Source: Cyanobacteria bacterium UBA1221 (GTDB taxonomy: Bacteria; Cyanobacteriota; Vampirovibrionia; Gastranaerophilales; Gastranaerophilaceae). Taken from it: a stretch of DNA of 64,000 bases. The position numbers and the translations under genes were made by a program. Positions 14,463 to 20,348 of the stretch are shown in pieces (positions within the stretch are counted from its first letter, which is position 1; each line of letters opens with the position of its first letter). The stretch lies in NCBI GenBank assembly GCA_002309425.1, contig DBXD01000066.1, positions 9,809 to 73,808 of the forward strand, written 5' to 3'. A model generated the notes under the pieces. It worked only from the letters and a program-made list of their open reading frames with translations. It did no database searches and had not been told where the DNA came from.

Positions 14463-14846
14463 TTAACCGACAGAGGTAAAACCTCCGCCCATAGAGCAGG
14501 AGCCGCCGCTAAATCCCGAGGAAGCGACCGAACCGCAACCCGCACCGCCAAAGCTGCCGTAAGATGCTCCTTCTGACAATGCTGCCATTGCATTGGCAAA
14601 TCCCTGCATAAATGCTGAATTGTTTGCCAGATTTGCCCTGCCTTCTTTTGAATAACTGCTAAAATCTATATTCAGGGAGAACGGATTTGTCGGTATAAAC
14701 ATATCATAATTATATACCGGAGGTACGGAAAATAGCGGACCGTAATCCATCATTGCCAACGAACCTGTTGTTTCCGACTCTTTTTGTGAAGATGCCGATT
14801 GGAATGCGCTCATCTCATTAGACTTATTTGTAGAAATTCCGTTCAT
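14463..14846 (-). CDS. hypothetical protein with Gly/Ser/Cys-rich C-terminal tail
   Basis: 127-aa ORF with AAGGAG RBS. C-terminus GASYGSFGGAGCGSVASSGFSGGSCSMGGGFTSVG. N-terminus MNGISTNKSNEMSAFQS. Confidence 0.5.
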   Translation of the reverse strand: MNGISTNKSNEMSAFQSASSQKESETTGSLAMMDYGPLFSVPPVYNYDMFIPTNPFSLNIDFSSYSKEGRANLANNSAFMQGFANAMAALSEGASYGSFGGAGCGSVASSGFSGGSCSMGGGFTSVG

Positions 14847-15100
14847 ATCTGACTCCTTAATATCTTCGTGTTACATATATATAAAAAATTTTTTAATATC
14901 CGAATTTCAAGAGTCTTTTATTTTGTAACAAATATTTACAAAAAGGCTCTGATATACGTTATTAGGTAATATTGCACTATGGTTCCCGTAAATTACGGTA
15001 TTTTCATTTGCCGGCAAGACGGATAAGAACCTGCTTTCCCGTTCCTCTTTTGCTTTATCATAAATTAAGATATACAAAATGTAACAGTCACACAAACATA

Positions 15101-15129
15101 TAGCAAAAAAAAATATTTAGCGGTTTAAT
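15101..15129 (+). promoter_or_regulatory. putative promoter TAGCAA-N17-TTTAAT, 7 nt before the ATG (leaderless mRNA predicted)
   Basis: TAGCAA at 15101-15106, TTTAAT at 15124-15129, ATG at 15137, no SD in between. The same module is seen upstream of several other lineage-specific genes. The reverse strand reads TTGCTA-N17-TACATT, so a divergent promoter is an alternative. Confidence 0.35.
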
Positions 15130-15136
15130 AAATTAT

Positions 15137-16543
15137 ATGAAAATACAATCCATGTCGGAAAATCAACCTATATTTAAAGGTGTAGGAGGTGCCGCAGCCT
15201 TTTTAGAAGAAAATGTCATGCTAAACAAGGCTCTTCTTGATGCGTCCGTAGACATTCCTTTTGTGTGCTTATCTAATAATAAAACAGAACGCAAGGAAAG
15301 ATTAAGGCGAGTTTTGGTTAACTATACGCTGTGTTTTTTGAGTCCCTTTGTAACCCTGCCGCTCACTAACCGACTTGCAATGAAACATGTTGCAAAACTA
15401 ACAAAAAGTTTTTCAGCAAATGGTAATAATCTTATTCATTTATCAAATAAATACTTGACATCAAAAGAAGCAACAAAAAAAGGAATCGAAGAACTTGCAA
15501 AAAAATATGATTTTAGTGAACTTTTAGAAAAATGTAATTACGACTATGAAAAGGTTCGCCAAACTATATTATCAAATATAAAAAATAACGACTTTCCGCA
15601 ATTACCCAAGAGATTTTTAAGATCCAAAGAGGCAACAAAACGAGGTATAGAAAAAATTTCAAAGAAATTTGATTTTAAAGAAATTCTGGCAAATAACGGT
15701 AATGACTACGAAAAAATCCGACAAGGCCTGATTAAAGCTAAGAACGCTGTTTTGAGTTTTGATTTTCTGTTTTCAACGGGTTCTGTTGCGGGTATGGCAT
15801 TCTTAAATAATGCCCTAACCAAAAAGAAAACCAATATGGACGGATACTCTGCAGAATTTGAGATGGCAGACAAGGAAACAGTAAGAAAAAGAGCAGAAAA
15901 ATACAAAAAGACCGCGCCTGTGAGAAAAGGGATTACGGCATCCATAGTTGCCTTGTCAGCATTACTTCCGTTTGCACTAAGAAAAGGGATGCTATCCCCC
16001 AAACTCACAGGACTTGCAGGATATATCAAAAAGCATGCCGATAAATTCGATTACACTAACGGCATATTTATGAAGCGATTACCGCTATTTTTATTTTGCA
16101 CAGGTGCCTTTACGGGAGTAGCACTTGCTTCAAGAAATCAAACCGAAGTTAAAAACAATCTTATACTTAACGGAACAGGAATAGCCGTTTATTTCGGCGG
16201 GGATTTATTAATAAACAGTTTACTTTCAAAAGCCTCGGACAAGATTTTTAAGACAAATATCATCGATAAGAAGGCACCAAAAACATTAATGAACAGAATT
16301 GTTACCCCGACAATTCCGATAAAAGATCTCTCAGGTAAATCCAGAACCATTGCCGCAATTAATTTCTTTATAAATTTTGCAGTTATAGCCGCTTTATACG
16401 GGTTTGGGGTTCCGACTCTTATAAATAAAATTGTCAGAAAAGATGTCGCGAAAGAAAAAAGCAATCAGTTACCCAAAATAAATTTCAGTAACGAAATTAT
16501 AAAAAGGGATATGGAAAACAGAACAGCCCTGCATTTAAAATAA
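15137..16543 (+). CDS. hypothetical multi-pass membrane protein with internal tandem ~41-aa repeat
   Basis: 468 aa. N-terminus MKIQSMSENQPIFKG. Repeats YLTSKEATKKGIEELAKKYDFSELLEKCNYDYEKVRQ and FLRSKEATKRGIEKISKKFDFKEILANNGNDYEKIRQ. Several hydrophobic segments in the C-terminal half. Confidence 0.6.
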   Translation: MKIQSMSENQPIFKGVGGAAAFLEENVMLNKALLDASVDIPFVCLSNNKTERKERLRRVLVNYTLCFLSPFVTLPLTNRLAMKHVAKLTKSFSANGNNLIHLSNKYLTSKEATKKGIEELAKKYDFSELLEKCNYDYEKVRQTILSNIKNNDFPQLPKRFLRSKEATKRGIEKISKKFDFKEILANNGNDYEKIRQGLIKAKNAVLSFDFLFSTGSVAGMAFLNNALTKKKTNMDGYSAEFEMADKETVRKRAEKYKKTAPVRKGITASIVALSALLPFALRKGMLSPKLTGLAGYIKKHADKFDYTNGIFMKRLPLFLFCTGAFTGVALASRNQTEVKNNLILNGTGIAVYFGGDLLINSLLSKASDKIFKTNIIDKKAPKTLMNRIVTPTIPIKDLSGKSRTIAAINFFINFAVIAALYGFGVPTLINKIVRKDVAKEKSNQLPKINFSNEIIKRDMENRTALHLK

Positions 16544-16700
16544 GTACGCCAAAATAGCATTTGGCGACTGTTCTTCAAAAAGCGGCAGTCGGTACGGAAC
16601 TGATTTTTTAACACATTTATCAAAAAATAAATCTGGGGACTTAGAGCAAATTCCTCAGGCAAATTGCAAAAATCTTCGGATAAAAATGTTTATCTGTTTA

Positions 16701-18698: not shown

Positions 18699-18796
18699 AA
18701 GTATCTCCTTGATGCTTATATAAAAATTATAAAAACAAAAATTTTATATTTCAGCAACATATTTTAACAAATCTTATAAATTTTATCGAGTATCCA

Positions 18797-19618
18797 ATGG
18801 CAAATTTATTTTTTTACAAACTTATAATAAGCATGATAAGTAACGGTATTAAATTTTCACCAACATACACAAAAGGTTCTACAAGGACCCATAATATCAT
18901 AAGGACCCAATTAAGCGAACAACTTTACTCCGAAGTAATGGATTTATTTGCGTCTCAAGCTTGTACCGAGGCTAAAAATAATCCAAAAGCCGGAGAGTAT
19001 ATATCCAAAGACCAGCTCAGAGAAATTTTTGTAAAAATATTACCGGAACCACTCAATTTTAAAATTCAAACCAGCACAAAAAGAGATATACAAAACAACC
19101 TTGGGGCAAGCATGTGTACAATATCTGACGAACAAGGTATTGATGGATACAGGCTCATTCTACCCTTAAAAGACAACCAATTATATATAGAAGACATCCC
19201 TGAACTCCTGCATGAAGCGGGACACTTGCTTGATTATGCGCTTAACCCTCAATATACAGCCAATCTCATTAGCATCGGGAATAAAGATTTTTATAAAAAA
19301 TTGGGTGAAATTTATGAAAAATTTTATTATACAATTACAGACTACTCATTATTCAGAATAAAAAGAGTAACAAAAGCTTTATTAAAAAATATGTCTTGCG
19401 AGGACAAGTTAAATGCTTTGAAAAATATAAAATTAAGACTAATGACCGAAAGCAACGCATATTTAACAGAAAATCACTATTGGCAAGAACTGAAAAAACA
19501 CCGTAAAGGAATGAAAAAAGCCCCCCCTCTATCCCCGTTGGATTTTCGCTTCCGAGAAAAAATCCGACTCATAAACAGTATGAGGTACAAAATTGTAGCA
19601 AAAGAACGCAAAAATTAA
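18797..19618 (+). CDS. hypothetical protein with HExxH metallopeptidase motif
   Basis: 273-aa ORF. IPELLHEAGHLLDYAL. The alternative start at 18833 gives MISNGIKFSPTYTKG. Confidence 0.5.
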   Translation: MANLFFYKLIISMISNGIKFSPTYTKGSTRTHNIIRTQLSEQLYSEVMDLFASQACTEAKNNPKAGEYISKDQLREIFVKILPEPLNFKIQTSTKRDIQNNLGASMCTISDEQGIDGYRLILPLKDNQLYIEDIPELLHEAGHLLDYALNPQYTANLISIGNKDFYKKLGEIYEKFYYTITDYSLFRIKRVTKALLKNMSCEDKLNALKNIKLRLMTESNAYLTENHYWQELKKHRKGMKKAPPLSPLDFRFREKIRLINSMRYKIVAKERKN

Positions 19619-19693
19619 AAGGCATCTAAATAAAATATGTACAGGTGTATAAAATTAAACCAATTTAATAAAACTTCATCTTTAACTTTAATT

Positions 19694-19722
19694 TAGCAAT
19701 TTTTATTTTCAGCAGATTTACT
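19694..19722 (+). promoter_or_regulatory. putative promoter TAGCAA-N17-TTTACT
   Basis: TAGCAATTTTTATTTTCAGCAGATTTACT, about 35 nt upstream of the 19758 ATG. The TTTTCAGC spacer element also occurs at about 18750 and 27750. Confidence 0.3.
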
Positions 19723-19757
19723 TATTATGTAACGAAATTATTTAACGGAAAAATAAA

Positions 19758-20348
19758 ATGATTAATACTAATTATCAGGCATATAATCCAAGTTTTGGCG
19801 CAAGCTGCGCAGGAAAAATCACTATAAAAGCAAAAAATGAGGCCGGAAAATTTGTCCCAAAAGATGCCCGTGTCGCAATACTAAACGTAAACTACTTTCC
19901 GGATTTCCGGGCAATTAGAAAATTATCCAATTTTTGGGAAAGAAAAACCGGCGGTCATATAATATCCAGTATTTTTGACTATGCACAAAAAGATGTTGCT
20001 AAAGTTAACGAAAATTACCCATATAGGGTATATTACGCCGTTACAACACAAGATGGGGATTTAAAGAAATTAGATCCAAAAAAAATTCTTGGTATTGCAA
20101 CCGTTCTCGAAAAAGATAATGCCAAAAACCATACTGTTTCATGGTTACAAGTAAATCCATTTTATAATTATTCTGCTAAAGGTCATCAACGAAAGTACAA
20201 AAATATTGGGGAACAATTGATAAAATTTATAAGAGAATATGGAGGGAAACCCTTAGAAACCAATGCGGAAGATGATACTGTCAACTTCTACAAGAAAATC
20301 GGGTTTACCCCTTTTACGAATGAAAAATACCACATGTATATGAATTAA
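19758..20348 (+). CDS. GNAT-family N-acetyltransferase (tentative) with tagged N-terminus
   Basis: 196 aa. The C-terminal half WLQVNP...RKYKNIGEQLIKFI...NAEDDTVNFYKKIGFTPF resembles GNAT motif A and the C-terminal FYxKxGF motif. N-terminus MINTNYQAYNPSFGA. Confidence 0.6.
   Translation: MINTNYQAYNPSFGASCAGKITIKAKNEAGKFVPKDARVAILNVNYFPDFRAIRKLSNFWERKTGGHIISSIFDYAQKDVAKVNENYPYRVYYAVTTQDGDLKKLDPKKILGIATVLEKDNAKNHTVSWLQVNPFYNYSAKGHQRKYKNIGEQLIKFIREYGGKPLETNAEDDTVNFYKKIGFTPFTNEKYHMYMN

Follow-up and report, generated by a model that had tools for sequence, protein, structure and literature searches.

The stretch of DNA considered here is a 64-kb window (64,000 nucleotides) of contig DBXD01000066.1 from Cyanobacteria bacterium UBA1221, a member of the Gastranaerophilales, and all coordinates below are positions in this window unless another locus is named. 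Its G+C content is 35.8%, and housekeeping genes (rplS, rnhB, gpsA, murQ, ribH, dnaE and others) are intermixed in it with many open reading frames (ORFs) that belong to no known family. Seven consecutive ORFs at 14463-20348, which alternate between the strands and each resemble a separate transcription unit, had been described in an initial annotation as unrelated proteins sharing a polar N-terminal segment, a candidate targeting or export tag. As defined here, the tag consists of a block A, M-[QNKR]-[IV]-[NS]-x-[IV], and a block B, [SNT]-F-[KGRE]-[GAS], separated by an N/Q-rich, acid-poor spacer of about 3-30 residues. It is found at the start of ~14-16 of the ~58 long ORFs of the window, all of whose N-termini were surveyed, and on 33 unrelated families across loci from 80 other Gastranaerophilales genomes. 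Upstream regions of tagged genes, when aligned, share an element TAGCAA-(A/T-rich, about 15 nt)-G[GC]nTTTAA(T), called the regulon promoter below. The tagged ORFs are best explained as an order-wide regulon of Candidatus Gastranaerophilales made up of unrelated, rapidly turning-over proteins, mostly effector-type enzymes with some membrane and small proteins among them, and on balance the tag probably acts as a Sec-independent export or targeting signal, export itself being what we infer from a segment that is N-terminus-specific, conserved, predicted to be disordered and placed where homologues carry a Sec signal.

Tagged ORFs of the window

All N-termini quoted in the initial annotation are present in the sequence where it had placed them and, measured against the tag as defined on independent genomes, five of its seven examples (15137+, 17186c, 17366+, 18698c and 19758+) are good whereas 14846c and 18833+ are weak. 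The 468-aa protein of 15137+, which contains hydrophobic segments, begins with the tag MKIQSMSENQPIFKG (15137-15181, plus strand); 36 nt upstream stands the regulon promoter TAGCAAAAAAAAATATTTAGCGGTTTAAT (15101-15130, plus strand), with a score of 19.0 in a position weight matrix (PWM) trained on 14 instances from other species only, and the ATG follows the -10-like element by 7 nt, a geometry that predicts a leaderless mRNA. The 161-aa protein of 17186c carries MKVGFSSISFKA (17151-17186, minus strand), with an AAGGAG ribosome-binding site upstream and a promoter at 17210-17239 (minus strand, PWM score 18.7). The promoter of 17366+ (17311-17344, plus strand) diverges from the latter, and the tag of this ORF, MIIASFQNLNNNFNKYSSPAFGN (17366-17434, plus strand), stands before an alpha/beta-hydrolase domain whose Pfam match starts at about residue 93. 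The 91-aa protein of 18698c (tag MRIYKIQNCYSQTNFSA, 18648-18698, minus strand) also has an AAGGAG site, together with a variant promoter, TGCTGAAA..GTTTTTATAAT, and the weakly GNAT-like protein of 19758+ (tag MINTNYQAYNPSFGA, 19758-19802, plus strand) is preceded by a promoter at 19694-19723 (plus strand, PWM score 15.4). Regarding the two weak examples, MISNGIKFSPTYTKG (18833-18877, plus strand; ending in PTYTKG) starts the HExxH (HEAGH) protein at Met13 of ORF 18797-19618. The promoter match TGGCAAATTTATTTTTTTACAAACTTATAA at 18798-18827 (plus strand, PWM score 16.3) puts the predicted transcript start at ATG 18833, and therefore supports the earlier choice of Met 18833 over the longer start at 18797. 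The other, MNGISTNKSNEMSAFQS (MNGISTN..SAFQS, 14796-14846, minus strand), begins a 127-aa G/S-rich protein and is doubtful, with a low score and no promoter match. The enzyme assignments proposed for this run fared unequally: the alpha/beta-hydrolase is solid, whereas the GNAT match is weak (E 0.002-0.004, below the Pfam threshold) and the HExxH protein has no Pfam match. The label of membrane protein has partial support, from the one to three transmembrane-like segments of 15137+, 17186c and 8114c.

The feature had been confined to 14463-20348, and in this respect it was drawn too narrowly. A second, larger tagged island of eight ORFs occupies 34941-48508, beginning with a 437-aa protein that has a long tag of 40 aa (MFITPVS...DTVSFSG, 34941-35060, plus strand) under a promoter at 34874-34903 (plus strand, PWM score 20.1). 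It is followed by 37475+, whose promoter lies at 37413-37442 (plus strand) and whose protein starts MITRIPGL, with the N-terminal block only and without F-x-G, and by a 501-aa protein with the tag MVFSVNNITICRNNLRNHYCSQVSFEG (38909-38989, plus strand). The 5'-nucleotidase-fold protein (ORF 40446-41939) starts at Met22 of its ORF with MQVSGINNYITHNQIPYKKASNKYSNVQFLG (40446-40538, plus strand). A 1361-aa protein, starting at Met9 of its ORF, carries MQIYSQFYKTQDLPQNRKYSPVFRG (46156-46230, minus strand) with a variant promoter, GGGCAA-N15-TTTTTCAT, just upstream. The 155-aa protein of 46995c bears MNISPVQYNGYFSRPQRCCSCRTFFGN (46915-46995, minus strand) under a promoter at 47001-47030 (minus strand, PWM score 27.0), its ATG 35 nt from the motif start and its mRNA predicted to be leaderless, and a protein with repeated HTH_23 domains has the tag-like start MNISIQNFYLHTPPYFYGK (48452-48508, minus strand) and a promoter at 48515-48544 (minus strand, PWM score 30.9), again with a predicted leaderless mRNA. 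A tRNA-Gln gene (46360-46430) lies inside this island. Outside both islands, 8114c begins with a tag-like start, MKVQSIYNSNIVKRGLKFAA (8055-8114, minus strand), followed by a transmembrane segment, and 2125c, a Ski2-like DEAD/DSHCT helicase that is possibly tagged (weak start MKIFAISPEQSLVCTRFSV), has a promoter at 2154-2187 (minus strand). The cargo of the window is completed by small proteins.

Housekeeping proteins of the window do not start in this way, as had been noted. RNase HII (4498-5217, plus strand) has an N-terminal extension of ~35 residues (MKTLTPEKELSFNKTSKPSNTV...), which does not fit the tag (acidic residues, no I/V at position 3, no regulon promoter), and its true start may lie downstream. 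Three small ORFs of 137-142 aa at 52350-53230 and 51425-51838 (plus strand) have polar N-termini (MSVNGPLDVNAVKNLQ, MVSNNPNLSNSTLDKF and MEVSGVKRQSIGS) without the F-x-G block and without the promoter.

N-terminal specificity and conservation of the tag

An independent test set was assembled from 80 loci of different species, retrieved through the conserved neighbour CstA (20361-21800), to which the CstA proteins of these loci are 59-84% identical. The named loci come from metagenome-assembled genomes (MAGs) of rumen, caecal and faecal origin that are labelled Candidatus Gastranaerophilales, Melainabacteria, 'Vampirovibrio' or 'Cyanobacteria bacterium UBA', which places the window in Gastranaerophilales, a cyanobacterial order without photosynthesis. 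The set amounts to ~1.3 Mb with 1062 ORFs of at least 100 aa in 617 families. None of the 80 species has an orthologue of the seven ORFs beside CstA, so tagged genes are not syntenic; phmmer searches with 14 window proteins gave almost no matches in these loci, and identical copies of tagged window proteins were found only in a few short metagenome contigs and one NCBI contig. Clear copies of the tag stand nevertheless on unrelated proteins of other genomes (MQIQRINNSTNFKG, MNIGNISFKG, MRVSTIRNQNFKG, MNISSVNNLTFGA, MKVNSVGNQQNFEG and MQINSCQNYNTKPNFKS).

The initial annotation had called for a comparison of N-termini with internal positions, and the tag proves to be about 10-fold commoner at true N-termini than behind internal Met. 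A position-specific scoring matrix (PSSM) built only from the F-x-G segments of its eight examples separated the N-termini of the 1062 proteins from internal 45-mers with an odds ratio (OR) of 2.4 (p 7e-5), and one built from 14 window examples did so in the 80 genomes with an OR of 3.0 (p 2e-7). A compact regular expression, ^M-x-[IV] plus [STNAQ]-F-([KREQTS][GAS] or G[ANVTES]) within 42 residues, matched 37 of 1062 real N-termini and 23 of 5847 internal-Met pseudo-N-termini (OR 9.1, p 3e-16), and when residues 2-45 were shuffled the matches fell to 7.2 +/- 2.7 (maximum 14). With one representative per BLAST family the figures were 28/617 and 11/2980 (OR 12.8, p 5e-14). This dereplicated test is the one relied on, because an unsupervised PSSM under two-fold cross-validation (OR 8.7) was contaminated by orthologous housekeeping N-termini common to both halves; a block-A PSSM trained on the window was too weak to give extra power. 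Blocks A and B co-occur in the 80 loci with an OR of 6.0 (p 1e-11).

Positions left free by the expression are biased as well: Q, N, K or R are favoured at residue 2, N or S at residue 4 and I or V at residue 6 (58%), N is enriched at F-3 and F-4, and R, K, I or V follow at F+3/F+4, where hydrophobic residues are found in only 42-48% of tags. The Phe stands mostly at residues 10-15, 81% of tags have a small residue (A, S or G) at F+2, and G occupies F+1 in 31%. The spacer had been characterized as rich in N, Q, S, T and Y and nearly free of Asp, Glu and Leu; N and Q are indeed enriched (log2 +1.3 each; S +0.5) and D and E depleted (-1.5 and -0.9), whereas Tyr is not enriched and Leu is only mildly depleted (-0.5). 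No Pfam or NCBIfam model matches over the tag segment, and a C-terminal motif common to the tagged proteins was sought and none was found.

It is barely credible that the tag is a product of chance or composition in an AT-rich genome where F, N, K and I are common, or of miscalled start codons. Loose versions of the motif are frequent, block B alone (F-x-G) occurring in 3% of internal windows, and the two weak examples among the original seven agree with such a reading. It is refuted by the internal-Met, shuffle and dereplicated controls, and equally opposed by the conservation of the tag in relatives, by its linkage to a promoter across species and by the fact that the ATGs called as starts have either a ribosome-binding site or a leaderless geometry. 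Loose expressions also returned false positives of another kind, namely N-terminal '..NATLEFKGN..' segments of proteins at L021:3725-5797, L036:3980-5968 and L039:3879-5993, which by sequence look like two-partner-secretion exoproteins.

Relatives of two families keep the tag while their bodies diverge to 25-50% identity, a comparison that the initial annotation had proposed. The alpha/beta-hydrolase of 17366+ has four known homologues with 35-50% identity in the body, and the tag is present in all four (MNIASIQ..NQSFGC; MKIQNVSSANYNISYEG). A distant relative of 19758+ in L020 starts MHTDSVSFGA, a GNAT-like tagged family is present in L004, L006 and L021, and a search for homologues of the HExxH protein gave two near-identical sequences only and no outgroup.

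The 5'-nucleotidase-fold family provides the most detailed comparison. An exhaustive phmmer search of 1.84 billion representatives with ORF 40446-41939 returned 89 matches, which divide into 48 closer relatives (38 with an intact N-terminus) and 41 distant ones (30 with an intact N-terminus); the metallophosphatase motif residues are all invariant in the family. In 26 of the 38 closer relatives an F-x-G lies at most 9 residues from the first catalytic strand, and not one of the 38 shows a hydrophobic h-region; examples are MSINSISVNFKG followed by TTDIYSITDSHQ, MKINSANNINFKG followed by TFYTTSDSHG, and MQVNTNNYSPSFNG followed by LTKIYALTDSHQ. The spacer between the blocks varies here from 0 to ~40 residues with both blocks in place. 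Among the distant homologues, on the other hand, 21 of 30 carry a classical signal peptide, of Sec or lipoprotein type, exactly where the tag would stand (for instance MLKRFFILPLLLLLAATAFCKEVN before IYHTSDTHG) and none has the tag. Since tag and Sec signal occupy the same position in homologues, a normally Sec-exported family has, in this lineage, replaced its signal peptide by the tag. Some close relatives lack the extension and start directly at the first strand (METNIYAITDSHQ, MGTTRIFATTDPHQ; P0039, P0041, P0046, P0053, P0062, P0064 and P0073), so the tag behaves as a module that some members of a single family possess and others lack, and the N-terminal extension is gained and lost as a unit.

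An AlphaFold2 model of the 5'-nucleotidase-fold enzyme, built on the alignment of this family (mean pLDDT 89, pTM 0.83) has pLDDT below 50 only at residues 1-28, which correspond to the tag, and its first strand begins at residue 32. A disordered tag is therefore predicted, one that stops 2-5 residues short of the folded domain. The nearest solved structures are two-domain 5'-nucleotidases (Escherichia coli UshA and c4898, a Thermus 5'-nucleotidase precursor, Haemophilus NadN and human CD73), and enzymes of the UshA, NadN and CD73 type are periplasmic or ecto-enzymes.

The shared promoter

The promoter shared by the tagged genes had escaped the initial annotation. AGCAA followed by ten A/T occurs 11 times in the window, where 3.9 occurrences are expected and no more than 8 were seen in any of 100 shuffles; nine of these sites are immediately upstream of tagged ORFs. 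The cross-species PWM finds 9 sites against 1.2 expected, 8 of them directly before tagged ORFs (15137, 17186c, 18833, 19758, 34941, 37475, 46995c and 48508c), and a scan of the region for the sigma-70 consensus was not above chance. In other genomes the element is associated with the tag (OR 8.7-19.6, p about 1e-5), and many element-bearing genes that were counted there as untagged are tagged by eye, e.g. MNNISFKA and MINKISFTG. A divergent 5'-nucleotidase-fold relative on an unrelated metagenome contig has the variant promoter TAACAA-N15-GGTTTTAAC. Additionally, a scan of JGI metagenomes with the 18-nt promoter core TAGCAAAAAAWWTTTTTT alone gave at least 120 sites, of which 80 loci were read. 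Six of these have an ATG 34-37 nt downstream, and in all six the N-terminus is of the tag type (among them MKITPYSYQPSFEA, MEIQNNVSFGT, MKILPVQ...VAFKG and MNTINTIKHDNYNYSFTS); three more sites with longer leaders precede tag-type starts (MQVQNISVSSNPNFGK, MITSVQNINFT...SVSFTG and ..GISFQS). The shared promoter is the strongest evidence that the tagged genes form one functional set, and it is because of this sharing that they are treated as one regulon.

The distance from the motif to the ATG has a sharp peak at 33-36 nt (12 of 55 instances). The ATG then stands ~7 nt after the -10-like element, and these mRNAs are therefore predicted to be leaderless; the remaining instances have leaders of 38-100 nt, often with AAGGAG. 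This geometry brings in the possibility that the tag is a translation-level feature, arising from selection on an A/U-rich, unstructured 5' end of mostly leaderless mRNAs. The predicted leaderless state of several tagged genes and the A/T-rich first codons (K, N, Q, I) agree with it. Synonymous codons at the conserved I/V and F positions follow background usage, however, and what is selected is therefore the peptide rather than the DNA or RNA, which largely refutes this explanation; the F-x-G block lies 10-40 codons downstream at a variable distance, tags are equally found on genes with ordinary leaders and AAGGAG sites, and blocks A and B are statistically coupled. A translational origin is accordingly very improbable. 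The tag is real, N-terminus-specific, under purifying selection at the amino-acid level and linked to the promoter.

The closest comparison for the promoter comes from Synechocystis, where promoters of SigF, a group 3 sigma factor, have TAGGC at -32 and GGGTAAG at -12 and serve pilA1 and cell-surface genes (Asayama and Imamura, 2008, PMC2532724). The two resemble each other in their two-element architecture and in sequence (TAGCA../GGnTTTAA against TAGGC/GGGTAAG), and both have an A/T- or purine-rich spacer and come from the same phylum; the consensus used in this comparison, T-AGCAA-A/T tract-GGG-TTTA(A), is similar but not identical. SigF drives pilA1, whereas the pilin-like genes of Gastranaerophilales are without the regulon promoter, so the expectation that pilin genes would share it was rejected. 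To our knowledge, leaderless geometry is not reported for SigF promoters.

Cargo proteins and candidate export routes

The initial annotation had seen no Sec-type signal in these proteins, and hydropathy agrees: the maximum 10-residue Kyte-Doolittle value in the first 40 aa of tagged proteins is at most 1.4, compared with 2.3-3.1 for Sec-type proteins of the window, the exception being 8114c with its transmembrane segment after the tag. The tag resembles a Sec signal peptide in its position relative to the mature domain (5'-nucleotidase-fold family), in its basic or polar start and in the small residue before the domain, but it lacks the h-region of about 10-15 hydrophobic residues that in Sec signals precedes an A-x-A-type site, has F at -3 of the putative junction and has an N/Q-rich spacer, and a Sec signal peptide was rejected on this ground. 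A Tat signal was rejected too, no tag having RR or an h-region, and so was a lipoprotein signal, no lipobox Cys following an h-region in the tags. Type IV prepilin leaders were set aside as well: true prepilins of the order have [AG]FTLAE and a helix and no regulon promoter, and tags are without both of these sequence features.

A cleavable leader or propeptide would be cut off behind F-x-[GAS] by a protease of its own, perhaps one acting together with an ABC exporter, and would leave a mature N-terminus 2-5 residues before the fold. Several observations speak for it, in that F-x-[GAS] always abuts the folded domain, the tag end falls, in alignments with Sec-type homologues, at their signal-peptidase site (FKG before TTxIYAITD against AYA before KDIVIYHTSD), the small residue at F+2 and the G at F+1 in one third would suit cleavage, and the tag is predicted to be disordered. 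Double-glycine leaders, which are exported by peptidase-containing ABC transporters, are widely used by cyanobacteria, and like them the tag is short, has no h-region and has G, A or S as its last residue, next to the mature part. Their consensus (hydrophobic residues at -4/-7/-12, an acidic residue at -8, G at -2) is not found, though: two thirds of tags have no G at -2, acidic residues are depleted, the acidic/hydrophobic periodicity is missing and F stands at -3, and a double-glycine leader as such was rejected. The cargos, which reach 1361 aa and in some cases have transmembrane segments, are large enzymes rather than peptides and unlike known peptidase-ABC substrates, and the neighbourhood of tagged genes showed neither a C39 peptidase nor an ABC exporter. 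Cleavage of this kind is considered improbable.

Tagged proteins of other species are mostly without Pfam match. Those with recognizable domains include three families of CheR-type SAM methyltransferases, in which the domain starts at residues 34-41 and CheR_N is missing, a Tpt1/KptA RNA 2'-phosphotransferase, a PARP-like protein, a protein with three FHA domains and a calpain protease, and an amidohydrolase. Islands of tagged genes recur: L015 has nine or ten in 20 kb, around cstA (L015:2375-19874, roe-deer caecum MAG JAFTSM010000039.1) and including the Tpt1/KptA, PARP-like and FHA-calpain proteins, and L059 has five. In its diverse enzymes, eukaryote-like or conflict domains, fast turnover and islands, the tagged set appears to resemble a secreted effector or toxin repertoire. 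The closest parallels are large lineage-specific repertoires with eukaryote-like domains, such as chlamydial Inc proteins or Legionella Dot/Icm substrates. The likeness lies in the several per cent of families involved, in fast evolution and clustering in islands, in domains such as PARP, calpain, DSHCT helicase and EF-hand, and in the one to three hydrophobic segments that follow the N-terminal signal of some proteins; those repertoires are not known to have a common sequence motif or promoter of this kind. We know of no evidence that Gastranaerophilales are intracellular or inject proteins.

The same cargos are the main argument for a tag that works inside the cell without export, either docking proteins to a cytoplasmic structure (the cell pole, or the chemotaxis or flagellar basal complex) or marking them for regulated degradation, in which case cleavage ahead of the Phe would leave an N-end-rule residue at the new terminus. 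Domains of cytoplasmic type fit such a role (the helicase, the HTH repeats, FHA and the CheR-like methyltransferase, where the tag replaces the receptor-binding CheR_N), as do the tag-less relatives of the 5'-nucleotidase-fold enzyme and the failure to find an exporter in the window or beside tagged genes. It leaves unexplained, on the other hand, why the tag stands exactly in the place of a Sec signal in a family whose characterized members are extracytoplasmic, as well as the rapid turnover, the islands and the toxin- or effector-like PARP, Tpt1/KptA and calpain domains, and an intracellular role is held to be unlikely.

For a tag read as an export signal, the leading candidate route is the flagellar-type type III apparatus, because no other known pathway both reads N-terminal signals without hydrophobicity and has been reported for the order; that it is in fact the route is possible but doubtful. 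Flagellar export genes are, according to published surveys, retained in the order even where the filament is missing. Complete flagellar gene sets were found in only 3 of 9 genomes, with partial sets in the rest (Soo et al., 2014), and a 2026 preprint gives complete sets for ~25%, the others keeping flhB, fliI and flgG with a postulated role in extracellular secretion. As in type III and flagellar signals, the tag lies at the extreme N-terminus (within the first ~20-40 residues), is disordered by prediction, falls below Sec hydrophobicity and has no Sec core, and stands on many unrelated cargos; it is also Ser/Thr/Asn/Gln/Ile-rich and Asp/Glu/Leu-poor. Early flagellar rod and hook subunits have an N-terminal hydrophobic signal and a gate-recognition motif, F-x-x-x-hydrophobic, that binds FlhB, and in Salmonella FlgD at least 19-24 residues are needed between the two elements, the subunit F standing at residue 30 or beyond (Bryant et al., 2022, PMC8983047). 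The tag likewise has a hydrophobic element right after Met (compare 2-SIAV-5 of FlgD) and a Phe-centred motif downstream, often with I, V or L at +3/+4. It differs from type III signals in requiring a small residue at F+2, and no type III machinery or chaperones were seen nearby. Motifs of flagellin (DDAAG) and rod proteins (NNIANxxTxGF) were not found in the ~1.3 Mb of related loci, and no flagellar genes turned up under the regulon promoter in the JGI scan. The only flagellum-related genes in these ~1.3 Mb are two adjacent FliD-like (flagellar cap) genes at L018:1-5746, one encoding 1404 aa. Their start, MAISFSGLASG, matches the regular expression and was rejected as a tag, being the usual N-terminus of FliD.

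Several points weigh against export of the tagged proteins, or against the type III route in particular. Some cargos look cytoplasmic, namely the CheR-like methyltransferase, the Ski2-like helicase, the HTH repeats and, doubtfully, an Orn/Lys/Arg decarboxylase; the several hydrophobic segments of 15137+ would be awkward for a type III substrate; and eight closer 5'-nucleotidase-fold relatives are without any extension, so that this enzyme may also act in the cytoplasm. Conservation of the tag motif is strong, whereas for classical type III signals no conserved sequence motif is known. The Phe at residues 10-15 and the spacing of the two elements fall short of the 19-24 residues of FlgD, unlike the pattern of early subunits. 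Secretion machinery was not found in the 64-kb window, as the initial annotation had stated, or in the surroundings of tagged genes in the ~1.3 Mb of related loci. Regarding the statistics, the compact expression was refined after inspection of the same loci on which it was tested, a circularity mitigated by the PSSM trained on the window, by the control with internal Met and by the promoter test across species, and the contamination of the unsupervised cross-validation by shared orthologues counts on the same side.

In the explanation favoured here, each member gene is transcribed from its own alternative-sigma-type promoter, TAGCAA-N15-GGnTTTAA, often placed so that the ATG would be the 5' end of the mRNA. 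If the tag is an export or targeting signal, its short hydrophobic start and its F-x-small motif would be recognized by a cytoplasmic receptor, which would pass the protein, still unfolded, on to the machinery for export or targeting. In its fullest form the proposal is a sigma-controlled export programme of about a hundred fast-evolving effectors per genome (PARP-, Tpt1-, calpain- and CheR-like), bearing a conserved motif and leaving through a filament-less flagellar apparatus or an undescribed pathway, and in this form it is put forward only tentatively. N-terminal sorting signals are known as a kind, and the tag differs from every described class in its sequence logic and in its coupling to a dedicated promoter. 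Full-text literature searches, which were not exhaustive, returned no prior description of the tag, the promoter or the regulon in Melainabacteria or Gastranaerophilales.

Other lineage-specific proteins of the window deserve mention apart from the tagged set. A 680-aa protein (11997-14039, minus strand; start MGMSASQARLLYLTAQLNNL) has GLUG motifs in its middle and a charged, repeat-poor C-terminus, and a relative at L013:4278-6059 has the same start (MGMSASQARLLSITARL); its conserved ends around a variable centre recall the layout of filament-forming proteins. Downstream of it, a 461-aa ORF (10609-11994, minus strand) has a HELIH motif. Large lineage-specific proteins whose sole recognizable domain is an EF-hand close to the N-terminus are encoded at 59233-61395 and 61431-62825 and possibly at 24414-25397 (all minus strand), without tag and without promoter, and an outer-membrane transporter of ShlB/POTRA_2/Omp85 type and OmpH are encoded at 25582-27615 (minus strand) and 27895-28404 (plus strand).

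Gastranaerophilales are widespread and uncultured inhabitants of human, rodent and ruminant guts. A readable tag and promoter make a class of 'hypothetical' proteins, several per cent of protein families, identifiable from sequence, and group toxin- and effector-like enzymes into one regulon; prediction of a secretome from MAGs alone becomes possible, and the tag and the promoter are themselves reagents for fusion experiments. There is a substantial chance that the tag marks a repurposed flagellar secretion system or a new pathway, and the finding bears on why most members of the order keep a partial flagellar gene set. Were the type III reading true, a type III signal would for the first time be readable from sequence, and were the machinery of another kind, the tag would point to a new bacterial sorting pathway. 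By either route, an export programme of this sort would imply an unrecognized interaction of these non-photosynthetic cyanobacteria with host, protist or bacterial cells.

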